Notes: generated by a model not told the origin, from the sequence alone. 53,816 bases of DNA from a virus (IMGVR_UViG_3300032050_000179:1-53816), one strand, 5' to 3'. Positions 6,048 to 18,290 are shown, numbered from the stretch's first letter. Program-made: numbers and translations.

Positions 6048-7169
6048 TTAAGGTAGCGGAGGGAACGAAACTGCAAACTGCATATCTTCTTGGTAACGAA
6101 GTTTTCGAATCTTAAGCAAAAGCTGATTGACAAAGTCTCTATCTACATGTTCTGGTAACGTAGAAATTTCTAACAGATCATCGATTTTTTGAATCTTAGT
6201 TACAGCTTCTTCTATCAGAGAATTGTAATCATATTCTCCTCTTCGTATAGCTAATAGCTGTTCTCTATTCTCTCGCTTAACATTAATACCTTTCCCTTCG
6301 AAAATTTCCAGAGCTGTATCTAAAAGCCTGTGACAGTGAGCCAAATTCTTTCCATCGTATCCTTTATTATGAACCATGTTATCGGTAAATCTTTCTTGGT
6401 TCCTATTTTCTACCCAATCCCAATACTCTTTATAATCTTTGCAATAAGTAGAGTATCCATCCTTATTAAAATACATTACGAAAGCATGTTCTATTCCTTT
6501 AGGAATTTCTGACAATGAAATGTCATTAGATAGAATTTCATCTTGGACAATTCCCTTGACATGTTTTCCTGTTACAGATTTACCTTGTGTCAAGTAAGCT
6601 CCATAAGTATATCTCATGTGTGGTATACTCACAAGGCTCACATGTTCTTGACTCCATCCTGGATGCACTTTTATTAAATACTCTTTAACAGGAAGTGATC
6701 CTTGTTTGTACGAGACATGACAGAAATCTAAAACTCCTTTGCGCTCTTTTTCCATAGGTCTAACTATTTTCTTATTTAAACCTCTAGCCTTTTTGATCTG
6801 ATCGATAGCATATCCTCCAAAAGAATTTCTACATTTCTTGGTTATAAACTTAGTCTTCTCTCGCAGTACCATATCAAAAATAGGATCTTTGAAAAGAATA
6901 CATTCTTCGGGTAAGTTCAAAACTTCTAACATCGTTGGATTATTAGATTCTAAAAGTTGTAAAAATCTTCTAAGCTCGTAGAAGACAGTATCATTTTTGC
7001 TATCTGAAACTTGCTCAACATAGTTGAAATCTAAAATATTATCAAAAGGAATCATGAAAACACCTTTTATATCCACATCAGATGTTGGAGTAGAAATTCC
7101 ATAGGCTTGACTTCCGACTATGCCTTCGAATATAATTAAATTTTGATCTCTAAGTTCTTGTATTGTCAT
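6048..7169 (-). CDS. Pol-beta superfamily nucleotidyltransferase (YcgL/RlaP-like)
   Basis: GSQAYGISTPTSDVDIKGVF motif, NPTMLE, YDGKNLAHCHRLL; ATG at 7169 (track extends to TTG 7178). Confidence 0.85.
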   Translation of the reverse strand: MTIQELRDQNLIIFEGIVGSQAYGISTPTSDVDIKGVFMIPFDNILDFNYVEQVSDSKNDTVFYELRRFLQLLESNNPTMLEVLNLPEECILFKDPIFDMVLREKTKFITKKCRNSFGGYAIDQIKKARGLNKKIVRPMEKERKGVLDFCHVSYKQGSLPVKEYLIKVHPGWSQEHVSLVSIPHMRYTYGAYLTQGKSVTGKHVKGIVQDEILSNDISLSEIPKGIEHAFVMYFNKDGYSTYCKDYKEYWDWVENRNQERFTDNMVHNKGYDGKNLAHCHRLLDTALEIFEGKGINVKRENREQLLAIRRGEYDYNSLIEEAVTKIQKIDDLLEISTLPEHVDRDFVNQLLLKIRKLRYQEDMQFAVSFPPLP

Positions 7170-7201
7170 CTTTTGCAATTTTTAAAGTTTCTTTAAATTC
7201 A

Positions 7202-9397: not shown

Positions 9398-9502
9398 AGC
9401 TAAATTTAAAAAATAGAACATTCAGGAGCTTCACCTGCCTTCTAGTATACATGGAACCTCTGTTAAAACAGTCAGAACCGAGCTTTCTTACTTTGTTCTA
9501 TT

Positions 9503-9587
9503 TGGTACTCTCGAAGGGACTCGAACCCTTACGCCTTTCGGCACTGGTTCCTAAGACCAGAGTGTCTACCTATTCCACCACGAGAGC
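9503..9587 (-). tRNA. trnL: tRNA-Leu(UAG)
   Basis: Cloverleaf, anticodon arm CTGGT-CTTAGGA-ACCAG, long variable arm, encoded CCA. Confidence 0.95.
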
Positions 9588-9592
9588 AAATT

Positions 9593-9787
9593 TTATTCTT
9601 CGAAAATTATTCCTTCATTCTCGACTAAAATATCATCAGCTATGTCTGAAAGAACTTCCGGTGCTTCTATTAAAGCATCATCGTTTTGCATTATCATTTC
9701 ACCTACGCCATATTTTTCAAAGTATTTAGTAAGTTTTTCTATAGCTTGTTCTTTTTTCTTCTCAGACCAAATTATTTTACAATGCAT
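9593..9787 (-). CDS. Small acidic hypothetical protein within tRNA operon
   Basis: 64-aa ORF between tRNA genes. Confidence 0.6.
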   Translation of the reverse strand: MHCKIIWSEKKKEQAIEKLTKYFEKYGVGEMIMQNDDALIEAPEVLSDIADDILVENEGIIFEE

Positions 9788-9803
9788 ATCATTTTTTTAG
9801 TAG

Positions 9804-9920
9804 TAGTCAGGGCAGGGCTCGAACCTGCAATCCTACCTGTTAGCTCGGATTTATCATCACTCGGTACGTTACTAACACATATACCAATCACTGAACGTCT
9901 ACCAATTCCGCCACCTGACT
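9804..9920 (-). ncRNA. tRNA-like RNA with anticodon region replaced by ~60-nt insert
   Basis: Perfect acceptor AGTCAGG/CCTGACT, D arm TGGCGGAATTGGTAGACG, T arm GCAGG-TTCGAGC-CCTGC; no canonical anticodon arm. Confidence 0.7.
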
Positions 9921-10062
9921 ATAAAAAACGGATAGAAAAAAGAACTCCTTAACAGTAAGACGTCTCTACTTCAAGAATCAGATTCAGTATTTAGATTACC
10001 GCGAATCTTCTAAATTACTTATTCTGCCATATACGATCTTTTTTCAGTTTAGTACTTTTATT

Positions 10063-10130
10063 TAAAGAATAAGGGACTCGAACCCTTGACCTCCGGACGC
10101 CGGTGCTCTCACCATCTGAGCTAAAACTTT
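10063..10130 (-). pseudogene. tRNA pseudogene / mimic with collapsed anticodon loop
   Basis: Canonical D and T arms; anticodon arm CCGG-CGT-CCGG; acceptor stem has two T-T mismatches. Confidence 0.65.
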
Positions 10131-10163
10131 GTTTTATTTTTTACTAAACTTTTTTCTCCGTCG

Positions 10164-10245
10164 TGACCTTGATGAGATTCGAACTCATACACCGTCTGGC
10201 ACAAGACCCTCAATCTTGCTTGTCTACCAATTTCAACACAAGGTC
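10164..10245 (-). tRNA. trnL: tRNA-Leu(GAG)
   Basis: CAAGA-TTGAGGG-TCTTG anticodon arm, long variable arm, acceptor GACCTTG/CAAGGTC. Confidence 0.9.
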
Positions 10246-10250
10246 AAATT

Positions 10251-10332
10251 GAGGTTGAGAACCTCTGTGTTGTTTAAAACTATTGTTCATTTTAACCTTA
10301 TTAGCAAATTCCTTTCTCAAGGGAACAACACA
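10251..10332 (-). ncRNA. Small structured RNA with kissing-loop potential
   Basis: TGTGTTGTT/AACAACACA stem; loop TTGAGAA complementary to loop TTCTCAA of GAGG/CCTC hairpin. Confidence 0.5.
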
Positions 10333-10338
10333 TAACTT

Positions 10339-10413
10339 GTCAGAGAATAATAAAAAGAGTGTTTGTAAGCAAATTCCAATATCAGCGATGTAACTCTTTT
10401 TTCCGCTTCTGAC
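10339..10413 (-). ncRNA. Y RNA-like element 1 (short, no tRNA domain)
   Basis: GTCAGAAGCGG..GAGTTACATC ... ACTC..ATTCTCTGAC; same bulged terminal stem as five other copies. Confidence 0.65.
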
Positions 10414-10419
10414 TTTCAG

Positions 10420-10493
10420 TGATCCCGGATGGATTCAAACCATCGACCTTAGCATTAGAAGTGCCACGCTCTATTCAACTGAGCTACGGAACC
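10420..10493 (-). tRNA. trnR: tRNA-Arg(UCU)
   Basis: Anticodon loop CTTCTAA; acceptor GGTTCCG/CGGGATC. Confidence 0.9.
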
Positions 10494-10545
10494 ATATCAA
10501 AGAACTTATATTTTAAAATAACAAACTAGTGTCTTTCTGAGAAAA

Positions 10546-10677
10546 TTATTTTTTCTTTTTTACTAATTTTTTAATGAATTTGTAAAACTTGTCATTTTTA
10601 TGTTCAGGTATTCTTAAGTATTTTCTCGATCCTTCAAATTGCCCTGTCATTACTGTTTTGATTTTGATTTCTTTCAT
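10546..10677 (-). CDS. Possible small basic protein (43 aa, MKEIKIKTVMTGQFEGSRKY...)
   Basis: Open frame with ATG between tRNA-Thr and tRNA-Arg; below ORF-track cutoff. Confidence 0.35.
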   Translation of the reverse strand: MKEIKIKTVMTGQFEGSRKYLRIPEHKNDKFYKFIKKLVKKKK

Positions 10678-10731
10678 ATATAAATTTAATACTATTATTA
10701 GAATTTTGAAATTGTATGACAAAATTCTTTG

Positions 10732-10804
10732 AGCCTTTGACAGGAGTCGAACCTGCGACCACGAAATTACAAAGTTCGCGCTCTACCAACTGAGCTACAA
10801 AGGC
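10732..10804 (-). tRNA. trnT: tRNA-Thr(UGU)
   Basis: Anticodon loop TTTGTAA; acceptor GCCTTTG/CAAAGGC. Confidence 0.9.
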
Positions 10805-10809
10805 AGTTC

Positions 10810-10947
10810 ATCTAGAGAATTTTTAGTACGAAGATTTTTCCGCGTCTACCAATTCCGCCATCTGGATAACCAGAGAGGGATTCGAACCCTCACGCTTTTA
10901 AAGCAGCCATTTTTCAGATGATGTAATCGTACTTACCGCTTCTAGAT
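10810..10947 (-). ncRNA. Y RNA-like element 2 (YrlA-like, permuted tRNA-Leu-like domain)
   Basis: TCTAGAAGCGG..CGATTACATC stem enclosing variable arm, T arm GAGGG-TTCGAAT-CCCTC, closed acceptor TCTGG-TTAT-CCAGA, then D arm. Confidence 0.75.
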
Positions 10948-10951
10948 TTAG

Positions 10952-11022
10952 TTACCGGGGAAGGATTCGAACCTCCGTTAAGTGGACCAAAACCACTTGT
11001 CCTGCCTCTAGACGACCCGGTA
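10952..11022 (-). tRNA. trnQ: tRNA-Gln(UUG)
   Basis: AGTGG-TTTTGGT-CCACT; acceptor TACCGGG/CCCGGTA. Confidence 0.92.
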
Positions 11023-11026
11023 TTAT

Positions 11027-11115
11027 TGGCGGAAAATAGTGGGATCGAACCACATACCAGTTAAGGTACGCATTACTTAGCAGGTAAGCCTTATCGCCGT
11101 TTAAGTTTACTTTCC
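11027..11115 (-). tRNA. trnS: tRNA-Ser(GCU)
   Basis: Anticodon loop CTGCTAA, long variable arm, G73-CCA. Confidence 0.88.
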
Positions 11116-11124
11116 ATTTCAAAA

Positions 11125-11234
11125 ATCAGTCAATGATAGAATCTTTCCTAGTTTCTTCGGTATAGGTACCATCATGGGCTCCGTTAACTGATTCTTTCTT
11201 TTATAACCCATACGGAACAAGCAGGGTAACTGAT
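11125..11234 (-). ncRNA. Small pseudoknot-containing structured RNA
   Basis: Terminal ATCAGTTA/TGACTGAT; interleaved TCCGT/ACGGA and ATGGG/CCCAT; ATGATGG/CTATCAT hairpin. Confidence 0.45.
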
Positions 11235-11240
11235 GTAAAG

Positions 11241-11314
11241 TCTGATAGGGAGGATTCGAACCTCCGAGTTCTCCACATCCCAAATGTGGCGGGGTACCAC
11301 TCCCCAACTACCAG
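11241..11314 (-). tRNA. trnP: tRNA-Pro(UGG)
   Basis: CCACA-TTTGGGA-TGTGG; acceptor CTGGTAG/CTATCAG. Confidence 0.9.
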
Positions 11315-11373
11315 AAATTTATTTCTATGCTACTCACTAAAAAGAGTCTATGAAATAATAACAGTCTTCTGTG

Positions 11374-11447
11374 GGTGACTAGCGGAAGTTGAATCCGCGA
11401 CCTCCAAGACCACAACTTGGCGCTCTAACCAACTGAGCTATAGTCAC
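11374..11447 (-). tRNA. trnH: tRNA-His(GUG)
   Basis: CCAAG-TTGTGGT-CTTGG; acceptor GTGACTA/TAGTCAC, C73. Confidence 0.92.
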
Positions 11448-11449
11448 AG

Positions 11450-11522
11450 AGTACCTGAAGGGATTCGAACCCCTGTTATAACGCTTTGCAGGCGTTTGCC
11501 TAAACCACTCGACCACAGGCAC
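11450..11522 (-). tRNA. trnC: tRNA-Cys(GCA)
   Basis: AACGC-CTGCAAA-GCGTT; U73. Confidence 0.92.
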
Positions 11523-11548
11523 TTATTAGACATACAAAACTGTCTCGG

Positions 11549-11635
11549 CGGAGAATGTAGGATTCGAACCTACGGAACCCTTTCAGGTTCGCTGCTTTTC
11601 AAGAGCAGTGCCATAAACCACTCGGCCAATTCTCC
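11549..11635 (-). tRNA. trnS: tRNA-Ser(UGA)
   Basis: CTGCT-CTTGAAA-AGCAG; long variable arm; G73. Confidence 0.95.
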
Positions 11636-11653
11636 ATTTATATTTCCATTATG

Positions 11654-11662
11654 TCAAAGAAC
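11654..11662 (-). promoter_or_regulatory. boxA-like antitermination element GTTCTTTGA
   Basis: Directly after attenuator A; same 9-mer at 10497-10505, 14285-14293, 16342-16350, variant at 14979-14987. Confidence 0.55.
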
Positions 11663-11668
11663 TTACAT

Positions 11669-11699
11669 AAAAAAACCGGATCTTTTTGAGATCCGGTTT
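11669..11699 (-). terminator. Attenuator terminator of tRNA operon A
   Basis: AAACCGGATCT-CAAAA-AGATCCGGTTT followed by T-run; 5' arm also complementary to AGATCCGGTT at 11736-11745 inside the leader ORF. Confidence 0.85.
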
Positions 11700-11720
11700 C
11701 TTAGTAAAATATGTAATTCG

Positions 11721-11837
11721 TTATTCACATACTTTAACCGGATCTACAATACTATGTCTAGGACTTTGCGAAAGCGTAGTCGGACATGAGCTTTGAAGAA
11801 GCTGTGTGGATAAAGATATGTGAGTAATATTTTTCAT
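11721..11837 (-). CDS. Leader peptide A (38 aa, MKNITHISLSTQLLQSSCPTTLSQSPRHSIVDPVKVCE)
   Basis: ATG just after promoter; codons 5-29 are almost only S,T,L,Q,H,C,P,R, the amino acids of the downstream tRNAs; contains antiterminator. Confidence 0.8.
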   Translation of the reverse strand: MKNITHISLSTQLLQSSCPTTLSQSPRHSIVDPVKVCE

Positions 11838-11847
11838 TGTTTATTAT

Positions 11848-11894
11848 TGTATTGCAAATATAACAAAAGTTCTTAACATGGAAAAACTTTTTGA
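11848..11894 (-). promoter_or_regulatory. Bacteroidota-type promoter (TATATTTG, -7 box) of tRNA operon A
   Basis: TAnnTTTG at 11855-11862; 47-nt block identical at 44/47 positions to 16661-16707. Confidence 0.75.
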
Positions 11895-11909
11895 AACTTT
11901 TTTATTTTT

Positions 11910-12419
11910 TTAAATTCTTCCTGATATAGCTTCTCTAAAAATTTCAGGAATTGTGAAAGTAGAAAGCTCTACCAGATCACATTTACTATTTACTAAAATG
12001 AACATTTCAAAATCTTGTCTCTTTTCAGTGCTATATTCCATTTTGAATTCCTTAGCAATTTTTCTTGAGAAATTACCGTAAAATTTCTTTCTTCCAGAAG
12101 AAGAATCGTTAGCGCAGAAAATAAAAGCTTCAGGATTAATTTCTGTTATGAAATCTATAGCAGCTTTTTCCACTGTAGGTATCACACTAAAAGCTTTCTT
12201 TAAATCATTTTTTAATTCGTAAGATCCGTCTACGTCAAATTTGAAAAGAAAATGTTTCTGTTTACTAGAAAAATTAACAGCTTTTATAGAGTAATTTGCG
12301 TCATCTATTAAAAAATTTCCTCTCCAAGAAGATTTCGACTTTTGCCATTGAACTTCTATTGGTTCATTCAAACCTTCAAAAGTTTTTGATAGAAAAGATC
12401 TGAAATTATCAATGTTCAT
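11910..12419 (-). CDS. Hypothetical protein
   Basis: ORF; likely start MNIDNFRSF at 12419 right after upstream stop. Confidence 0.7.
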   Translation of the reverse strand: MNIDNFRSFLSKTFEGLNEPIEVQWQKSKSSWRGNFLIDDANYSIKAVNFSSKQKHFLFKFDVDGSYELKNDLKKAFSVIPTVEKAAIDFITEINPEAFIFCANDSSSGRKKFYGNFSRKIAKEFKMEYSTEKRQDFEMFILVNSKCDLVELSTFTIPEIFREAISGRI

Positions 12420-12420
12420 G

Positions 12421-12630
12421 TTATTTTTCTTCGTTGGCATTCTTAGGATCGCCTAAATCATCTGCTTTAACATGTTCAGTATGCTCTGCTTTACCGTTCC
12501 CTTTTTCTACTGCATCTTTAGGATCAGAAAGATCCTCAGCTTTTGTTGTAGATCCTGAATAATGTTTCTTGACTAATGCAGAAGTTCCCATTTTACAAAA
12601 CTCTTCAAACGTTGCTATATTCTTTTTCAT
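12421..12630 (-). CDS. Small protein with T4 internal-protein-like N-terminus (MKKNIATFEEF)
   Basis: 69 aa, internal KAEDLSDPK/KADDLGDPK repeat; GATATATA at 12647-12654. Confidence 0.65.
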   Translation of the reverse strand: MKKNIATFEEFCKMGTSALVKKHYSGSTTKAEDLSDPKDAVEKGNGKAEHTEHVKADDLGDPKNANEEK

Positions 12631-12657
12631 AGTTTCTAATTTTAGGTATATATCAAA

Positions 12658-13053
12658 TCAGAGACCGAATTTTCTTCCTATTAAGGTGTATTTATTCTCT
12701 TCAATGTACTTAAGAAAAGCATTATAAAAAATTCTAGCAACCCGAATATTTCCGCCATATTTTTTTACATAAAATGTCGGAGCTGGTCCAAATGATGAAT
12801 CTCCGCATGTCCCGTATATGGCATACTTAGTTACTAATCGATCTCCTACATGAACTTTATATGCATAAGCATTCAAAGACCATGCATATCCTTTTATGCC
12901 CATTTTAGTGCATTTATCTTTTCCGACGTATATATTTGCGCTACGATGCTCGAAAAGGGAAGATATATTAGAAAACGCAGCCTCTGTTACATAAAGACCT
13001 AATGTCTTTTTTCTATTATCAATATTGATTTCTTTAAGTTCAAATCCATTCAT
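12658..13053 (-). CDS. Hypothetical protein (C-terminal GRKFGL)
   Basis: 131-aa ORF, ATGA overlap with upstream gene. Confidence 0.7.
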   Translation of the reverse strand: MNGFELKEINIDNRKKTLGLYVTEAAFSNISSLFEHRSANIYVGKDKCTKMGIKGYAWSLNAYAYKVHVGDRLVTKYAIYGTCGDSSFGPAPTFYVKKYGGNIRVARIFYNAFLKYIEENKYTLIGRKFGL

Positions 13054-13340
13054 AATTTTTCTAGTAAAGAAAAAGGATATTCTCTATGCGGTTCTAATTT
13101 ATGTACTATTGATTTGATATATTCAGCGTCAAGATAGCCGAAATTTTCAAGTAGACTAACTACAGTATCTATGCAAAAATCGGCAATTCCTAGAGAATTG
13201 GATTTATAAATTTTTTGAATAGAACAAAAAATATCTCCGTTTTTTAAATCACCTTTTTCGCTAAATAAATCTATCCTTAAATATTCACTATGAAGATCCA
13301 TAGTACAAATTCTTACACTGAAAATTTCAATTCTATTCAT
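13050..13340 (-). CDS. Hypothetical protein
   Basis: 96-aa ORF. Confidence 0.65.
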   Translation of the reverse strand: MNRIEIFSVRICTMDLHSEYLRIDLFSEKGDLKNGDIFCSIQKIYKSNSLGIADFCIDTVVSLLENFGYLDAEYIKSIVHKLEPHREYPFSLLEKL

Positions 13341-13382
13341 TTAATATTCATTTAATTAATGAGGGAATATGAAAGGTGTAAC

Positions 13383-13406
13383 AAAAGGAGGTTTAAACCT
13401 CCTTTT
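13383..13406. terminator. Intrinsic terminator ending tRNA operon B (bidirectional shape)
   Basis: AAAAGGAGGTTT/AAACCTCCTTTT perfect inverted repeat with A/T tails. Confidence 0.75.
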
Positions 13407-13415
13407 AATTCTTGT

Positions 13416-13645
13416 TTATTCATTGGGAATTCTCTTACTTTTATGATCTCTTTTATACTTATCATAAGTACACATGTAACAATTACAAGGTCTTCCTGTA
13501 GTCCTCAACCAATTGGAGTTTTACCTTCAATAGCTGATTGTAAATTGTAAGTTTCATGTGTATTGTTGGAGAACCAATTTTTTGCACGTCTAATAAATTT
13601 GACGAATTTTTTGTGCCTTCTAAAGGCTCGGCGATAGTTTTTCAT
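13416..13645 (-). pseudogene. Frameshifted small basic Cys-motif protein
   Basis: MKNYRRAFRRHKKF...GKTPIG* in frame 0; -1 frame continues NSNWLRTTGRPCNCYMCTYDKYKRD...NE*. Confidence 0.55.
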
Positions 13646-13672
13646 TTGCTCATACTTATGTTATAGCTAGTA

Positions 13673-13705
13673 ACTGTTGCCCCAGATACTGTTGCCCCAG
13701 ATACT
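13673..13705. repeat. 15-nt tandem duplication ACTGTTGCCCCAGAT x2
   Basis: Direct observation; lies in loop of AGCTAGTA/TACTAGCT hairpin. Confidence 0.85.
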
Positions 13706-13759
13706 AGCTTAGTGTATGAGCTTTCTAATAAATATCATCGTCTTTAATTTTTTTAAGTG

Positions 13760-13833
13760 TGGTCCATCCTGGACTCGAACCAGGGACCTTCGCATTATGA
13801 GTGCGCTGCTCTAACCGACTGAGCTAAAGGACC
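13760..13833 (-). tRNA. trnI: tRNA-Ile2(CAU) (lysidine-type; Met possible)
   Basis: Loop CTCATAA; GGTCCTTTAGCTCAGTCGGTTAGAGCA start resembles bacterial Ile2. Confidence 0.8.
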
Positions 13834-13836
13834 ATA

Positions 13837-13974
13837 AACTAGAGAATAATACTTCGAGCGTGTTTCTAGTGCTATCCGCTACACCACATCCGGATTACCC
13901 GAATGCCAGGATTCGAACCTGGGCCTTTTTTGTTACAGAAAAAATTGAAGTAACTCGTTGTTCCGCTTCTAGTT
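13837..13974 (-). ncRNA. Y RNA-like element 3 (YrlA-like)
   Basis: AACTAGAAGCGG..GAGTTACTTC; T arm CCAGG-TTCGAAT-CCTGG; closed acceptor CATTCGG-GTAAT-CCGGATG; D arm; ..ATTCTCTAGTT. Confidence 0.78.
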
Positions 13975-13980
13975 AATGTC

Positions 13981-14119
13981 TTGCAGAGAATGATTTCAAG
14001 AGTCTTTTTAGGACAAATGCTCTACCACCTGAGCTATACGCTTTCCATCAAGGTATACGTAGTAGGATTCGAACCTACGACCCATTGTTTTGAAGTAACT
14101 CTTCGAACCGCTTCTGCAA
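13981..14119 (-). ncRNA. Y RNA-like element 4 (YrlA-like)
   Basis: TTGCAGAAGCGG..GAGTTACTTC; T arm GTAGG-TTCGAAT-CCTAC; closed acceptor; D arm TAGCTCAGGTGGTAGAGCA; ..ATTCTCTGCAA. Confidence 0.78.
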
Positions 14120-14127
14120 TAAAATTT

Positions 14128-14275
14128 TTTCAGAGAATATTTGCTAGAGTGTAGTACGTGCTCTACCACTGAGCTAACTCGGTATTAAATGTGGAAGAAA
14201 TGTACCGAGTGAGGGAATCGAACCCCCGACCACGAGCTTAAGAGGCTGAAGTAACTCTTGCGACCGCTTCTGAAA
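14128..14275 (-). ncRNA. Y RNA-like element 5 (YrlA-like)
   Basis: TTTCAGAAGCGG..GAGTTACTTC; T arm; closed acceptor ACTCGGTA/TACCGAGT; D arm TAGCTCAGTGGTAGAGCA; ..ATTCTCTGAAA. Confidence 0.78.
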
Positions 14276-14298
14276 TATATTTTTTCAAAGAACAATTT

Positions 14299-14388
14299 GT
14301 CAGGCAATATGGAATCGAACCCTAATCCTGCGTCCCCTTTCCAGTTTAATGTACTCCGTTCTGCTGTGCACCATTACACCATGCCTAA
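14299..14388 (-). pseudogene. tRNA-like RNA without recognisable anticodon arm
   Basis: Acceptor TTAGGCA/TGCCTGA, D arm TGGTGTAATGGTGCAC, T loop GGTTCGATTCC; middle region non-canonical. Confidence 0.55.
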
Positions 14389-14437
14389 TCGAATGTTTCG
14401 AACCATTCGGGCGTAAGTTAATTAGACTTACGCTTTG

Positions 14438-14616
14438 CGATCCTAGACGGAATCGAACCGTCAGTGTAAATTACATGAAATATGCTTTGACTATGTACAT
14501 TTAAACTCCGATCCTAGTATTAAGGAGTGTCAAACCATATTTCCATCATCTACCCAATTTCACAATACATAATGACAGTTTCTAATGTTTTCGCCCATTG
14601 CTGTTGCTATAGGATC
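14438..14616 (-). ncRNA. 179-nt RNA with tRNA-like acceptor/T arm and long internal hairpin
   Basis: GATCCTA/TAGGATC acceptor; GACGG-TTCGATT-CCGTC T arm; internal GAAATATG/CATATTTC, TTTGAC/GTCAAA, ACTCC/GGAGT helices. Confidence 0.65.
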
Positions 14617-14622
14617 AATTTC

Positions 14623-14703
14623 AAACTGAGAATAATAACAAGAGCGTTGTTTCGGTTACAAAGTAAAAGTTTGTTGAAGTAACTCTCGTTTCCGCTTCAG
14701 TTT
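14623..14703 (-). ncRNA. Y RNA-like element 6 (short, no tRNA domain)
   Basis: AAACTGAAGCGG..GAGTTACTTC ... GCTC..ATTCTCAGTTT. Confidence 0.65.
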
Positions 14704-14752
14704 TAAAAAGTTCGTTTCTGTTAACCAACGTTATGATTACTAGAAACTAGCG

Positions 14753-14824
14753 TAGCGGGGGCCGGACTCGAACCGACGACCTCCAGGTTATGAGCCTGGC
14801 GAGCTACCACTGCTCTACCCCGCA
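14753..14824 (-). tRNA. trnM: tRNA-fMet(CAU), initiator-type
   Basis: CCAGG-CTCATAA-CCTGG; T1:T72 mismatch; TGCGGGGTAGAGCAG start. Confidence 0.88.
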
Positions 14825-14830
14825 ATATAG

Positions 14831-14913
<83 letters not shown>

Positions 14914-15043
14914 ATTTAACCAATACTCAATTTCTTTTTCAAATATTGTATTGGTTAGATAGTTAATTTTAAATTATTTCAAAGAATTATATTTCAAAAT
15001 AACAAAAGTTATTATGTTTGAGAAACATTTTTTACATTTTTTG

Positions 15044-15120
15044 TGGAGCGGAAGAAGGGATTCGAACCCTCGACCCCCTGCTTGGAAGGCAGGTGCTCTA
15101 ACCAGCTGAGCTACTTCCGC
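15044..15120 (-). tRNA. trnG: tRNA-Gly(UCC)
   Basis: CCTGC-CTTCCAA-GCAGG; U73-CCA. Confidence 0.95.
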
Positions 15121-15125
15121 TTGTG

Positions 15126-15199
15126 TGATCCCGGTGGGGCTCGAACCCACGACTCCCGCATTAAAAGTGCGATGCTCTAGCCAGCTGAGCTACGAGATC
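15126..15199 (-). tRNA. trnK: tRNA-Lys(UUU)
   Basis: Loop CTTTTAA; acceptor GATCTCG/CGGGATC. Confidence 0.92.
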
Positions 15200-15273
15200 A
15201 AGATGTAATGTTGTTTAGGTGCCATTACATTCAATCTCGAATGTAATGGCTAAAGCTTAGAGTTTTTCATTGA

Positions 15274-15468
15274 TCAGTTTTTGTATTTTGTTTTTCTGTT
15301 GTGTTTCCACGTTTTGTATTCTCTCCATTTATGATTAGGAAGATCTCCATGATTCCATGTCCATCCTTCTTCATAATATGGAGGGTAATACCATTTCAAG
15401 ATTATCTTACGATACTCTTTGTTGTTATGAGCTTTGTTAAATTTAGCTCTGTTGTAATTTTTACTCAT
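15274..15468 (-). CDS. Small basic Trp/Tyr-rich protein
   Basis: 64 aa, ends REYKTWKHNRKTKYKN; preceded by uORF MKKEFDNL* and hairpin. Confidence 0.7.
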   Translation of the reverse strand: MSKNYNRAKFNKAHNNKEYRKIILKWYYPPYYEEGWTWNHGDLPNHKWREYKTWKHNRKTKYKN

Positions 15469-15531
15469 TGTTGTAGGTTTTAGTTAACCTACAAGTTATC
15501 AAATTCTTTTTTCATATTAATAGTTTTGTAG

Positions 15532-15603
15532 TTACGAAGAGGAATTTCGAAATCCTGGCCTTCCGGATATGAGCCGGATGCTCTGCCTCTGAGCTACTTC
15601 GTA
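15532..15603 (-). tRNA. trnM: tRNA-Met(CAU), elongator-type
   Basis: TCCGG-CTCATAT-CCGGA; acceptor TACGAAG/CTTCGTA. Confidence 0.85.
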
Positions 15604-15609
15604 ATTAGA

Positions 15610-15810
15610 TTAAGCTATCCACCTGATAAGCAATTTTCCTTCCATACTGTTCAAGAAATCTGCATCTCCCATATCTTCAACAGGAATTTGAAAATGAACT
15701 CTCGTTTCTTCAAGATCTGCATAATAATACGCTACTCCTTTTCGTATAAATTGAATACGTGCTTCCGGGTTTTGCTTGTAGAGAGCTTTTTTGATTTCGT
15801 TCTTTTCCAT
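15610..15810 (-). CDS. Hypothetical protein within tRNA operon
   Basis: 66-aa ORF with ATG and A-rich leader. Confidence 0.7.
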   Translation of the reverse strand: MEKNEIKKALYKQNPEARIQFIRKGVAYYYADLEETRVHFQIPVEDMGDADFLNSMEGKLLIRWIA

Positions 15811-15829
15811 TATACGTTTATTTAGTTAG

Positions 15830-15903
15830 TTGAAACAGTAAGACTCGAACTTACGACCTCCTCGGTATCAGCGAGGTGCTCTAACCAACTGAGCTATATT
15901 TCA
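15830..15903 (-). tRNA. trnI: tRNA-Ile(GAU)
   Basis: CCTCG-CTGATAC-CGAGG. Confidence 0.92.
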
Positions 15904-15908
15904 ATTTG

Positions 15909-15983
15909 CGACGGTGGTAGGACTCGAACCTACTATCCTCGACTTAACAGGCCGTAGCTATATACCACTTAAGCTTCACCGTC
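15909..15983 (-). tRNA. trnN: tRNA-Asn(GUU)
   Basis: Loop CTGTTAA; acceptor GACGGTG/CACCGTC; G73. Confidence 0.9.
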
Positions 15984-15991
15984 ATTTTTTG

Positions 15992-16064
15992 CACAGGAGG
16001 CAGGAATCGAACCTGCAACCACCGGTTTTGGAGACCGGTACTCTACCAATTGAGCTACTCCTGT
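15992..16064 (-). tRNA. trnW: tRNA-Trp(CCA)
   Basis: CCGGT-CTCCAAA-ACCGG. Confidence 0.93.
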
Positions 16065-16070
16065 GTATAG

Positions 16071-16144
16071 TGGATCCTAGGGGACTCGAACCCCTGACCC
16101 CCTGCGTGCAAGGCAGGTGCTCTAGCCATCTGAGCTAAGGACCC
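16071..16144 (-). tRNA. trnA: tRNA-Ala(UGC)
   Basis: CCTGC-CTTGCAC-GCAGG; G3:U70 identity pair. Confidence 0.95.
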
Positions 16145-16151
16145 AATTTAG

Positions 16152-16224
16152 CGGTCCTGAAGGGATTCGAACCCTCGATCTCCTCCGTGACAGGGAGGCG
16201 TCCACTCCACTGGACTGCAGGACC
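16152..16224 (-). tRNA. trnD: tRNA-Asp(GUC)
   Basis: CCTCC-CTGTCAC-GGAGG; G73. Confidence 0.93.
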
Positions 16225-16251
16225 TTGATGACAGTACAAAAACTGTCTCGG

Positions 16252-16325
16252 TCACCCGTATGGGATTCGAACCCATGATCTTCTCCGTGAAAGGGAGACG
16301 ACTTAAACCTCTTGTCCAACGGGCG
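16252..16325 (-). tRNA. trnE: tRNA-Glu(UUC)
   Basis: TCTCC-CTTTCAC-GGAGA. Confidence 0.93.
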
Positions 16326-16362
16326 TTGGAATTATAATATGTCAAAGAACGTTTTCTTTTTG

Positions 16363-16435
16363 TGGTACCGACTGGAATCGAACCAGTGACACAAGGATTT
16401 TCAGTCCTTTGCTCTACCGACTGAGCTACGGTACC
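16363..16435 (-). tRNA. trnF: tRNA-Phe(GAA)
   Basis: AAGGA-CTGAAAA-TCCTT; acceptor GGTACCG/CGGTACC. Confidence 0.95.
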
Positions 16436-16445
16436 AAGTTAATGC

Positions 16446-16481
16446 AAAAGAAAAGCCTCGGTTTTTGACCGAGGCTTTTCT
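16446..16481 (-). terminator. Attenuator terminator of tRNA operon B
   Basis: AGAAAAGCCTCGGT-CAAAA-ACCGAGGCTTTTCTTTT; 5' arm also complementary to ACCGAGG at 16523-16529 in leader ORF. Confidence 0.85.
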
Positions 16482-16498
16482 GAATTTTAATTTCTATA

Positions 16499-16636
16499 TT
16501 ATAGTGTCGTTAAATCCATTTTCCTCGGTTGAAATTTCTCAATATCAAACTCAAACCCTTTCGCAGCATAGCCATAATTGTCGGCCATCTTATTGGCTTT
16601 CCAATTATTATTTTCTATGTTGTTAATGTTGTACAT
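16499..16636 (-). CDS. Leader peptide B (45 aa, MYNINNIENNNWKANKMADNYGYAAKGFEFDIEKFQPRKMDLTTL)
   Basis: ATG after promoter; first 35 codons use only M,Y,N,I,E,W,K,A,D,G,F, the amino acids of the downstream tRNAs; contains antiterminator. Confidence 0.82.
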   Translation of the reverse strand: MYNINNIENNNWKANKMADNYGYAAKGFEFDIEKFQPRKMDLTTL

Positions 16637-16660
16637 TTGAAAGTGTATTTGTTTTATTTT

Positions 16661-16707
16661 TGTATTGCAAATATAACAATAGTTTTTAACGTGGAAAAAC
16701 TTTTTGA
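16661..16707 (-). promoter_or_regulatory. Bacteroidota-type promoter (TATATTTG) of tRNA operon B
   Basis: TAnnTTTG at 16668-16675; near-identical to 11848-11894. Confidence 0.75.
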
Positions 16708-16728
16708 TTATTTTCTAAAAATTTTTTT

Positions 16729-17085
16729 CTAGTAACCAATTTCTTCTACTAGATCAAGGAATTTGACCCATTTTTCACCATCTGGTCTTTCTTCAAGAAC
16801 ATTAGCTACAAATCCAAATCCTTCTCGTTCTGTCCTTTCATAGTAATCACCAAGATCTGCATCTTCTTCACCAGAAGCAACATTTGGTTCAACAACACAA
16901 GCAGCTGCTTGGTTGTAAATCTTCATCAAGTTTTCATCGTTCAAGATAGCATCCGCATCTTTAGCCAATAATTGATCAAGACCTCTAGGATTTGATCTTT
17001 CAAAATCTGAACATGCACTCATTACCATGTCAGCCCAAGAATCTGATTCATTTAACCAGTTTTCAAAAAGTTTAATATGTTTCAT
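16729..17085 (-). CDS. Acidic protein with MKHIKLFENWLNES N-terminus (putative internal head protein)
   Basis: 118 aa; GATATATA at 17101-17108; N-terminus resembles T4 capsid-targeting sequence. Confidence 0.7.
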   Translation of the reverse strand: MKHIKLFENWLNESDSWADMVMSACSDFERSNPRGLDQLLAKDADAILNDENLMKIYNQAAACVVEPNVASGEEDADLGDYYERTEREGFGFVANVLEERPDGEKWVKFLDLVEEIGY

Positions 17086-17099
17086 ATTTTGGATTTTTC

Positions 17100-18290
17100 T
17101 TATATATCTTTAAGAATAAAATTTTTTCTCAAAACTGGATTATCAAACATTTCCATAGTTTCCGTTGATAAATTCTTTTGAAGAACTTCTCTCTGCACAT
17201 CTAAGTGATCTTGATAGTTTTCTTTTATCCATTCAAATTTTTCTTTGAGTTCTTTTTCGTCATTAAACACATAATCAGAAAGTTCTCTATAGATATTCTC
17301 AGAATCTATTTTACCATAAATGAGAAAAACTGTTCTAGCTATACTTGCGTCATACAGAGTCTTGTTGAAATAGTAGCTGCTATCTTCACCCTTTCCAACA
17401 AAAAGATAAGCTATGTAACTGTTCAATTCTTTGTACATCTCATCTTTGACAATAGGTTCTTCTATCATTTCAATAGAAGAAATTTTTCTTAAACTTCCGT
17501 TGATAGTTCTCTCCGCTGTTCTTAAAAAGAGAGGAACTTCTGAAGATTTCATTATCTCTTTAATCTTTCTAACTTTACCTGGGTTTAAGTTACCTACATG
17601 ATAGAGTAAATTCTTTTTCTCTTCTATTCCTAAATTAGAATTGTTCTCGTAACATTCCTCGTACCTAAAAAGAATATCGTCGGAAATGTAACAAGATCTA
17701 TTCTGAACATTTTCTTTTTCTAAGAAAGGCATAGTCTTAGTCAAAGTTATCCATGACCAATCGCAAACTTCTCTATTTCCATTGCATAAGAAATAAACAT
17801 TGTCGTAATTAGTCATTTTAACATTATCTAGAGAATGAAGATGTTTGGGATTTCTTTCTACGAATTTTATACCGCTTTCCGTGGTGTTTATTCTATCTTG
17901 GATCATCTTTTTATAATCTCTCATTTCATGCTTAAAGTCGCATATCCTGAAATAAACTTTCAAGTCTTGTTCATTGGTGATATGAGAAAGAATTTTGTAA
18001 AGATCCACAGCTTTAGGGCTAATAACTCCTCCGAAGAAATCTTGGTACCAATCCCAAGTGAATAACAAATCTACTTTAGTGAATTTTTCTACATCAGCAA
18101 AACCGTTTACATGCACTCTAGTGAATTCAAAATCGAATTCATCTAACATGTGTGAGTATTTGCCTTTATAATCAAAAATGTATACCTTTTCAATATTAGG
18201 ATGATTAAATAGTGTGTTATAACATCTCAGCTCGTTGAAGAGCATTCCGTTCATTGTAAAATCAAAATGTAGAAAAAAACCTACTTTCAT
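17100..18290 (-). CDS. T4 beta-glucosyltransferase-like GT-B enzyme (putative DNA glycosyltransferase)
   Basis: DFFGG...KVYFRICD and YIAYLFVG...TLYDASIARTVFLIYGKID resemble recalled T4 BGT motifs; similar size. Confidence 0.6.
   Translation of the reverse strand: MKVGFFLHFDFTMNGMLFNELRCYNTLFNHPNIEKVYIFDYKGKYSHMLDEFDFEFTRVHVNGFADVEKFTKVDLLFTWDWYQDFFGGVISPKAVDLYKILSHITNEQDLKVYFRICDFKHEMRDYKKMIQDRINTTESGIKFVERNPKHLHSLDNVKMTNYDNVYFLCNGNREVCDWSWITLTKTMPFLEKENVQNRSCYISDDILFRYEECYENNSNLGIEEKKNLLYHVGNLNPGKVRKIKEIMKSSEVPLFLRTAERTINGSLRKISSIEMIEEPIVKDEMYKELNSYIAYLFVGKGEDSSYYFNKTLYDASIARTVFLIYGKIDSENIYRELSDYVFNDEKELKEKFEWIKENYQDHLDVQREVLQKNLSTETMEMFDNPVLRKNFILKDI

Follow-up and report, generated by a model that had tools for sequence, protein, structure and literature searches.

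A putative leader-peptide attenuator ahead of a tRNA operon in a jumbo phage

The tRNA region and the anatomy of unit A

The viral record IMGVR_UViG_3300032050_000179 of IMG/VR (53,816 bases, estimated to be 19% complete), the whole length of which was analysed and is called the window below, is, as the completeness estimate implies, a fragment of a jumbo phage genome. Its GC content over 2-kb windows lies between 31 and 40%, and its long open reading frames (ORFs) stand nearly all on the minus strand, those for baseplate proteins and a nucleotidyltransferase among them. Between 9503 and 16435 the same strand carries 22 (ARAGORN) or 23 (Rfam) transfer RNA (tRNA) genes, and the element considered here, unit A, lies at 11894-11669, directly ahead of one of two tRNA operons. 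Only five strong sense-strand terminators occur in the window, and the two strongest are those of unit A and of its paralogue, unit B, which is found at 16707-16449 ahead of the other tRNA cluster. Rfam matches at gathering level number 23 in the window and are all tRNAs, with no T-box and no other cis-regulatory family among them. A megablast search with the tRNA region against phage records gave matches of tRNA size only, and a search for relatives through the upstream 176-amino-acid ORF gave 43 pattern matches, none of which was confirmed.

Reading from 11894 to 11669 on the minus strand, unit A comprises a promoter, an ORF of 38 codons, a 10-nucleotide (nt) copy of the terminator 3' arm inside this ORF, and the terminator itself:

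11840-11894, minus strand: promoter region, with the -7 box TATATTTG at 11862-11855, 17 nt before the ATG at 11837
11721-11837, minus strand: leader ORF A, 38 codons plus stop, translated as MKNITHISLSTQLLQSSCPTTLSQSPRHSIVDPVKVCE
11751-11825, minus strand: regulatory codon tract (codons 5-29), 24 of its 25 residues being amino acids of the downstream tRNAs
11735-11746, minus strand: antiterminator 5' half, with the core AGATCCGGTT at 11745-11736, in codons 31-34 and 12 nt before the stop codon
11669-11702, minus strand: intrinsic terminator A, with 5' arm 11702-11689, loop 11688-11684, 3' arm 11683-11670 and a T run to 11669
9503-11635, minus strand: tRNA operon A, with Ser(UGA), Cys, His, Pro, Gln, Thr, Arg(UCU), Leu(GAG) and Leu(UAG)

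The terminator hairpin has a computed energy of -17.8 kcal/mol. Its stem has at most 14 pairs, or 13 in a strict hairpin scan, the outer ones drawing on the 7-T run, and 36 nt separate the end of the terminator from the tRNA-Ser gene. An initial annotation of the same DNA had described the ORF at 11837-11721 with its translation, as well as the recurrence of AGATCCGGTT (11745-11736) in the terminator 3' arm, and both were reproduced.

Match between the leaders and the downstream tRNAs

The nine tRNAs of operon A cover exactly the amino acid set of the tract (S, C, H, P, Q, T, R, L). After Met1, 26 of the 37 residues of leader A belong to this set, the frequency in the window proteome being 0.35 (binomial P = 1.3e-5), and such an in-set fraction is reached by only 2 of the 174 small ORFs of the window (25-80 amino acids). 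As regards codon choice, the initial annotation had listed all six Ser codons, Thr ACT/ACA/ACG, Gln CAG/CAA, His CAC/CAT and Pro CCG/CCT, and a sole Arg codon, AGA, matched by the single downstream Arg tRNA (UCU, by ARAGORN); each of these statements holds, the six Ser codons being found among the 7 of the leader. Drawing all six in seven has P = 0.006 under window codon usage, in a test chosen post hoc, and synonymous-codon diversity as a whole is only marginal (27 distinct codons versus 24.1, standard deviation (sd) 1.9, P = 0.098), the corresponding values for leader B being 27 versus 23.7 (sd 1.6, P = 0.041). Under wobble rules, 23 of the 25 tract codons can be decoded by the tRNAs of operon A when a weak Ser(GCU) candidate at 11027-11115 is counted, and 20 without it; this candidate, the sole potential AGY reader in the operon, was called by ARAGORN at the 85% threshold without Rfam support.

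Unit B offers a second leader within the same window, with these elements:

16653-16707, minus strand: promoter region, -7 box at 16675-16668
16499-16636, minus strand: leader ORF B, 45 codons, MYNINNIENNNWKANKMADNYGYAAKGFEFDIEKFQPRKMDLTTL, codons 1-35 all falling in the set of the downstream cluster
16522-16530, minus strand: antiterminator 5' half, AACCGAGGA, matching the terminator 3' arm (duplex -12.7 kcal/mol, an energy reached by 6 of 300 shuffles)
16449-16481, minus strand: terminator B, hairpin -22.4 kcal/mol, its end lying 15 nt from tRNA-Phe
13759-16435, minus strand: tRNA operon B, with Phe, Glu, Asp, Ala, Trp, Asn, Ile, Met, Lys, Gly, Tyr, Met and Met, interspersed with small ORFs, a promoter copy (C) and tRNA-like modules

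The run of in-set residues in leader B counts 35, versus 11 for the next best of the 174 small window ORFs, and the amino acids are divided between the two leaders in the same way as the tRNAs between the two clusters (2x2 counts of 26 and 8, 7 and 37; Fisher p = 1.3e-7). Furthermore, the 55 nt upstream of leader A recur twice, with 93% identity at 16707-16653 and with 78% at 15042-14986.

Comparison of 28 units in seven phage records

Relatives were sought through the nucleotidyltransferase (6048-7178), which led to 14 viral loci, and four records at about 50% identity were found to carry tRNA clusters; Tenacibaculum phage PTm1, whose nucleotidyltransferase is 37% identical, gave no tRNA matches. 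The first set comprises 14 units from five related IMG/VR records. The scan required a terminator no farther than 600 nt upstream of a tRNA, preceded at a distance of no more than 90 nt by the end of an ORF starting with ATG; 11 sites were listed in this way and 10 kept, the one dropped being a 6-bp hairpin in locus L023 after a 78-amino-acid ORF. A second, independent set was taken from the unannotated GenBank genomes LR756502.1 (642 kb) and LR745206.1 (635 kb), found by tblastn of phage records at 46-48% identity and holding 46 and 53 tRNA matches. In their fetched clusters 19 terminators were listed, and the 14 with a short ORF and downstream tRNAs were used; of the five left out, one had no tRNA after it, three lay at the ends of long ORFs or had no ORF, and one, in LR745206.1 and with the leader MKTMTINNRNRLTDII, preceded synthetase genes. 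Each of the 14 sites held exactly one candidate ORF. Examples from the two sets are the following:

First set, leader MNTMVNIIKSIKHISVKNWAGLVLPNLC: before Lys, Val, Ile, Ser and His tRNAs
First set, leader MKRVINTTNRFFGRGEDSSTGFLLV: before Phe, Thr, Asn, Asp, Arg, Glu, Met, Met, Gly, Gly and Ile tRNAs
First set, leader MKQFKHIQSFIMCSKWADERDICMFRVVDIDLG: before 17 tRNAs for 13 amino acids
First set, leader MKNLNKNIVAWPYSCPAAPAYPAGTGLLLSFS: before Tyr, Pro, Pro, Trp and Cys tRNAs
Second set, leader MTTSFQQQQQQQINRTD: seven Gln codons in a row, with 8 nt from the end of the terminator to the first of four tRNA-Gln genes
Second set, leader MTTTQQIQQQQINQTD: before three tRNA-Gln genes
Second set, leader MKTTIKNTSSRSRSSKSGEVRLYS: before Arg, Ser and Arg tRNAs
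Second set, leader MKTMNLNMNLNTLTVVNNTLCIRPCEGFDLFNDL: before Asn, Asn, Leu, Val, Ile, Thr and further tRNAs

When leaders and tRNA sets of the first 14 units were permuted, the summed own-set fraction of the leaders (7.98) stood far above the permutation mean (4.77, sd 0.45), and none of 200,000 permutations reached it; the same was true at the codon level under wobble rules (7.70 versus 4.19, sd 0.49; 0/200,000). The own leader was the best of all for its tRNA set in 10 of the 14 units by amino acid and in 11 by codon, the remaining units ranking second or third. In the second set the match attained z = 7.5, and over all 28 units z = 11, again with 0 of 200,000 permutations reaching the observed value in either case. 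Moreover, in both LR756502.1 and LR745206.1 the own leader ranked first for 7 of 7 tRNA sets within the genome. The covariation can be followed in an orthologous pair, where the leader of G3-2 has Ile and its cluster a tRNA-Ile, while G1-2 has neither. Units can also be nested: a leader before Pro, Pro, Asp, Asp and Asp tRNAs also contains Gln codons, and a promoter-less attenuator with a Gln run lies further down the same operon, ahead of its Gln tRNAs (the nested pairs are H1-6/H1-7 and H1-3/H1-4).

A TAnnTTTG box, a putative Bacteroidota -7 element, occurs within 200 nt upstream of 24 of the 28 leaders, the background being 0.58 per kb, and three of the four units that lack it are internal nested ones. 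A search of viral contigs with the exact promoter pattern gave no matches. In G1-2 and G3-2, which are orthologous (L018 6990-7166 and L020 11471-11731), a structured-looking stretch of 90-200 nt separates the promoter from the leader ORF. By ARAGORN coordinates, the gap between the terminator and the first tRNA measures 6-36 nt in most units (the exceptions being 65, 96, 100, 146, 235 and 479 nt), so that there is no room for a separate promoter.

The simplest alternative is that unit A holds an ordinary terminator, or an insulator against upstream transcription, that the 38-codon ORF is a chance or unrelated one, and that the tRNAs are transcribed from a promoter of their own. Strong terminators do commonly close transcription units, and small ORFs are frequent in AT-rich DNA, as the 174 in the window attest. 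Nevertheless, chance ORFs would not be expected to match their tRNA sets beyond every one of 200,000 permutations in two independent sets, the 36 nt behind terminator A (6-36 nt in most units) have to accommodate the postulated promoter, and the conserved promoter stands directly upstream of the ORF and not of the tRNAs. In addition, all that is conserved in the leader peptides is their composition and the stretch pairing with the terminator. We regard this alternative as barely credible.

Antiterminator pairing and ribosome-mask folding

The evidence on pairing relied upon consists of duplex energies and of a ribosome-mask profile. In unit A, the in-ORF segment pairs with the terminator 5' arm at -16.2 kcal/mol, versus -6.7 (sd 1.8) for dinucleotide shuffles, 0 of 300 of which reached the observed energy, and the extended antiterminator comprises 21 bp at -23.9 kcal/mol (z = -5.9). 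Throughout the first 14 units, it is with a segment towards the 3' end of the ORF, past the tract and 7-50 nt ahead of the stop, that the terminator 5' arm pairs best; out of 300 shuffles per unit, the observed duplex energy was reached by 6, 0, 0, 4, 15, 0, 17, 43, 0, 7, 6, 2, 31 and 18. In the second 14 units the combined p against shuffles was 2.8e-7, with single units ranging from 0/200 to 102/200. A 'stabilisation' measure based on refolding was dropped as inconsistent, the antiterminator 5' half being engaged, in some units, in a leader-internal hairpin when no ribosome is present.

For the mask, the RNA up to 13 nt past the A-site codon (the first free nucleotide) was removed, as was the terminator 3' arm. 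The probability that the 5' arm of terminator A is sequestered was then 0.75 for stalls at own-set codons (0.8 over A-site codons 2-26) and 0.03 with the ribosome at the stop codon; over all 28 units it was 0.49-0.83 at own-set stalls versus 0.00-0.32 at the stop. The drop in sequestration coincides with the end of the in-set tract, and this profile is present in 28 of the 28 units from seven phage records. The initial annotation had reasoned that a stalled ribosome leaves AGATCCGGTT free, so that polymerase reads through, and that a ribosome which has come to the end of the ORF covers it, so that transcription terminates; this is borne out by the mask folding (0.8 versus 0.03), by its recurrence in 28/28 units and by the leader-tRNA covariation.

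An untranslated leader is predicted to form the antiterminator (probability of at least 0.5) in 23 of the 28 units, with 0.83 for unit A, and the default state of the operons may therefore be ON in the model, full translation of the leader switching them OFF.

Leaders before aminoacyl-tRNA synthetase genes

A scan of the whole LR745206.1 genome gave 159 strong terminators, 55 of them preceded only by short ORFs. Of these 55, seven stand before tRNAs and 18 are followed within 300 nt by an ORF of at least 80 amino acids. Eight leader-like candidates upstream of protein genes were picked among these 18 sites before annotation, and seven of the eight proved to precede aminoacyl-tRNA synthetase or synthetase-like genes, whose specificity matches the repeated residue of the leader in six of seven cases. 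At the other 10 short-ORF-plus-terminator sites of the genome, no synthetase gene follows (0/10), and the 161-amino-acid ORF behind the eighth picked leader had no family match. The pairs are:

Leader MKTMTINNRNRLTDII (NNRNR): asparaginyl-tRNA synthetase, AsnRS (NF003037 414.1 bits, TIGR00457 394.5 bits), and an ArgRS-like gene (PF00750; TIGR00456 E = 3e-10, below the family cut-off)
Leader NDD: non-discriminating AspRS, 474.6 bits
Leader IIII: IleRS, 674.2 bits
Leader FNFFF, MNTNTTFNFFFSHKMV: PheS-related ligase, 423.4 bits
Leader VVVNVSV: ValRS-like, 328 bits, below the cut-off
Leader LLLPL: LeuRS-like, 390 bits, below the cut-off
Leader with a single His: HisRS-like fragment, an unconvincing match

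The terminators of these units lie at 336611, 345154, 381984, 390453, 404639, 614956 (minus strand) and 35769 (minus strand), in loci L061, L062, L064, L044, L065, L075 and L046. That cognate leaders stand before synthetase genes in this genome supports reading the leaders of the tRNA operons in the same manner.

The synthetase leaders also bear on the possibility that the units act after transcription, the hairpin being an element for processing or stability of the tRNA precursor, or ribosome stalling triggering cleavage and not a choice of termination. Precursors of tRNAs are indeed processed near such hairpins, and the present data do not distinguish termination from processing. The hairpins are, on the other hand, GC-rich stems followed by T runs, the signature of intrinsic terminators; the conserved alternative pairing sequesters specifically their 5' arm; and like units also stand before synthetase genes, which encode proteins and for which processing of tRNA plays no part. 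On balance, processing is a very improbable explanation.

What the leaders sense

The initial annotation had also suggested sensing at the level of isoacceptors, and here the support is partial. In favour of it, codon families track anticodons: the leaders contain 11 CGN and 3 AGR codons if the Arg tRNAs are confined to CGN, as against 1 CGN and 11 AGR if they are confined to AGR (p = 4.8e-4), and 7 ATA and 2 ATY codons where only tRNA-Ile(UAU) is present, as against 4 ATA and 17 ATY with tRNA-Ile(GAU) only (p = 0.004). On the other side, the codon-level match is no stronger than the amino-acid-level one (z = 7.2 versus 7.0 in the first 14 units), and the reader of the AGY Ser codons is a weak call.

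A related question is whether codon identity matters at all, since the attenuators could sense general translation capacity or the phase of infection, any slowdown or loss of ribosome loading turning the operons on. The predicted antiterminating state of untranslated leaders (0.83 in unit A, and 23/28 units) speaks for such a device, as the lack of translation alone would give read-through. A general sensor would, however, make the match between leader and tRNAs superfluous, yet this match is specific within genomes (rank 1 for 7/7 sets in both huge phages) and extends to codon families, and the leaders before single synthetase genes carry runs of the cognate residue. A general sensor with codon identity secondary is accordingly considered unlikely.

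Proposed mechanism and its standing

Taking the above into account, unit A is most probably a ribosome-mediated (leader-peptide) transcription attenuator with a phage tRNA operon under its control, a reading to which we would assign a probability of about 85%. The anatomy, the alternative pairings, the leader-tRNA covariation over 28 units and the cognate synthetase leaders are results of computation, and the mechanism drawn from them presumes leader translation, coupling of transcription and translation in the host, and regulated termination in vivo. Transcription would begin at the promoter with the -7 box 11862-11855, and a ribosome would translate the 38-codon leader while RNA polymerase proceeds. 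Codons 5-29, which specify amino acids of the downstream tRNAs and are largely codons that those tRNAs read, would be decoded slowly when an aminoacyl-tRNA is scarce, and the ribosome would stall upstream of 11746-11735. This segment, left free, would pair with the terminator 5' arm 11702-11689, the terminator would not form, and polymerase would read through into the nine tRNA genes. With fast decoding, the ribosome would reach the stop codon and cover the segment, so that the terminator would form and end transcription 36 nt before the first tRNA. Since the tRNA product would relieve the slow decoding that served as signal, the unit would be a negative-feedback controller of tRNA supply, working as an OR gate over eight amino acids.

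Several points weigh against this proposal. The case is wholly computational, and contigs from the metatranscriptome (four RNA runs, 9400-17400) do not cover leader A or its terminator, the pieces mapping to this region being mostly tRNAs of other organisms. The choice of units was not fully blind: 4 of the 14 in the first set, with larger-loop terminators, were added by eye, the longer ORF was taken where two ended near a terminator, and the start codon of G1-3 was moved to an ATG downstream of the promoter. Orthologous units are, moreover, statistically non-independent, and the more distant IMG/VR relatives G004 and G009 (35% identity) carry tRNAs with no leader-terminator units seen. With respect to decoding, the tract codons ATA and TTA (2/25) have no reader among the tRNAs of operon A, the TTA at codon 9 not being read by the cluster's Leu tRNAs (GAG and UAG); three others (AGC, AGT and AGT) cannot be read by tRNA-Ser(UGA) and depend on the weak Ser call. 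Most amino acids have only 1-4 leader codons, and sensitivity to a single scarce tRNA is assumed. As for the pairing, the duplex test is weak in some units (the observed energy being attained, for instance, in 43/300, 89/200 and 102/200 shuffles), and the folding model is a thermodynamic one with an assumed ribosome footprint. Finally, the full-length minimum free energy fold of unit A shows a leader-internal hairpin together with the terminator, and the state without a ribosome therefore depends on kinetics.

Viewed jointly, the units suggest a codon-resolved 'translation regulon', in which every tRNA operon, and in one 635-kb genome at least seven synthetase genes, would be gated by its own cognate leader, in some cases nested. 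The phage would thereby measure in real time which codons are badly decoded and switch on only the matching tRNAs or synthetases, and these would be the first known tRNA genes to be feedback-regulated through their own codons. We lean towards this broader reading. Decay of host tRNAs, host anticodon nucleases and a mismatch in codon usage are possible causes of the poor decoding. To our knowledge, regulation of tRNA genes takes place at their promoters, through growth rate and stringent control, and control through a translated leader written in their own codons is not known for them. If confirmed, phage tRNA arrays would be demand-regulated devices and not constitutive cargo, which bears on why phages carry tRNAs, and each leader would state the codons that the phage monitors. 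The huge phages appear to apply the same logic to synthetase genes. The units may furthermore serve as tools, being a natural set of compact sensors specific to amino acids or codons.

Further features of the tRNA regions

Within operon A, a tRNA-like gene at 10063-10130 (minus strand, Rfam 49 bits) has only 3 nt at the position of the anticodon loop, which is thus truncated, and may either have decayed or represent a tRNA-like gene devoid of an anticodon. Within operon B, the third promoter copy (C, 14986-15042, minus strand) lies between the tRNA-Gly and tRNA-Tyr genes, has neither leader ORF nor terminator but a 10-bp hairpin without a T run, and may act as an unregulated internal promoter. 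Between the tRNA genes of the two operons lie minus-strand ORFs of 66, 64 and 43 amino acids (15610-15810, 15274-15468 and 10546-10677), basic or rich in aromatic residues, which are outside the ten window proteins scanned against PHROGs.

The stretch 13946-14698 (minus strand) contains four copies of the hairpin motif GAAGCGG-N(6)-GAGTTACTTCA, none being expected by chance, which alternate with T-arm- and D-arm-like pieces. Two parts of it, 14275-14125 and 14104-13994, score 32 bits against the Rfam family YrlA, whose members are Y RNA-like and carry a tRNA-like domain; this is below the gathering score of 69. These elements may be tandem Y-RNA-like or permuted tRNA-like RNAs embedded in operon B; the window, itself only about 19% of the genome, contains no TROVE (Ro60) gene. 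At 14282-14371, in the region of the tRNA-like modules, one contig from an RNA library (run X16) skips 88 nt, which could reflect splicing or a variant from another strain and rests on this single contig. In one of the related IMG/VR records (G003, L021 1590-1662), a tRNA with a CTA anticodon (labelled Pyl by ARAGORN), possibly an amber suppressor, and a tRNA-Cys stand directly behind a promoter, without leader or terminator.

Comparison with known systems

With the tRNA gene arrays of phages and bacteria (main texts of PMC8421152, PMC9723584 and PMC7162821) the present operons have in common that they are large tRNA gene clusters in jumbo and huge phage genomes. The main text of PMC9723584 describes phages of 293-331 kb, with 31-34% GC and 5-25 tRNAs, which resemble the present clade, and that of PMC7162821 complete genomes of 634 and 642 kb. 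Attenuation, leaders and terminators are not mentioned in the main texts of PMC8421152 and PMC7162821, nor attenuation or leaders in that of PMC9723584, and the main text of PMC4833913 has nothing on tRNA genes. A full-text search, outside which supplements and subscription journals fall, gave no description of leader-peptide attenuation of tRNA genes in phages or bacteria.

In a formal sense, unit A combines the elements of a leader-peptide attenuator. Its promoter sits close to a short ORF, and both come before the genes under control, from which the leader is separated by an intrinsic terminator. The leader is enriched in cognate codons (24/25 tract residues, with covariation over 28 units). 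In the folding model, antiterminator and terminator exclude each other, and the antiterminator 5' half is covered once a ribosome has arrived at the stop codon but exposed if the ribosome has stalled within the tract.

T-box riboswitches bind uncharged tRNA directly and do not need translation. They are alike in goal, coupling the expression of translation genes to the charging of specific tRNAs through a choice between terminator and antiterminator, but the T-box fold of Rfam has no match at the gathering threshold in the window. T-boxes are, moreover, rare in Bacteroidota, the phylum to which the promoter type points.

Among classical attenuators, ilvL (Ile/Leu/Val) and thrL (Thr/Ile) are multivalent, and hisL, trpL, leuL and pheL respond to a single amino acid. 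The phage units share with these amino acid operons the order of promoter, leader ORF, regulatory codons and overlapping antiterminator and terminator, as well as a stop codon placed so that the terminating ribosome masks the antiterminator 5' half, and homopolymer runs are common to both (QQQQQQQ before four tRNA-Gln genes). They differ in their output, which is tRNA and not biosynthetic enzymes, so that the loop would regulate decoding capacity and not amino acid supply; in their leaders, which sample 8-13 amino acids with 1-8 codons each; in the lack, in most units, of a stable 1:2 'protector' hairpin, whence the untranslated state is predicted to be ON; and in the fact that they can be nested inside an operon.

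The pheM-pheST attenuator of Escherichia coli, in which a leader peptide rich in Phe codons controls phenylalanyl-tRNA synthetase, also has a short ORF with codons cognate to the regulated gene of the translation apparatus, followed by a terminator with an alternative antiterminator. It has a counterpart in LR745206.1, where the leader MNTNTTFNFFFSHKMV and a terminator precede the PheS-related gene. In contrast with pheM-pheST, the phage units ahead of tRNA operons would regulate the tRNAs themselves, and their leaders span up to 13 amino acids and not one. By its anatomy, unit A is a member of the leader-peptide attenuator class, and what is new is the target, phage tRNA operons, and the breadth, with up to 13 amino acids and nested units.

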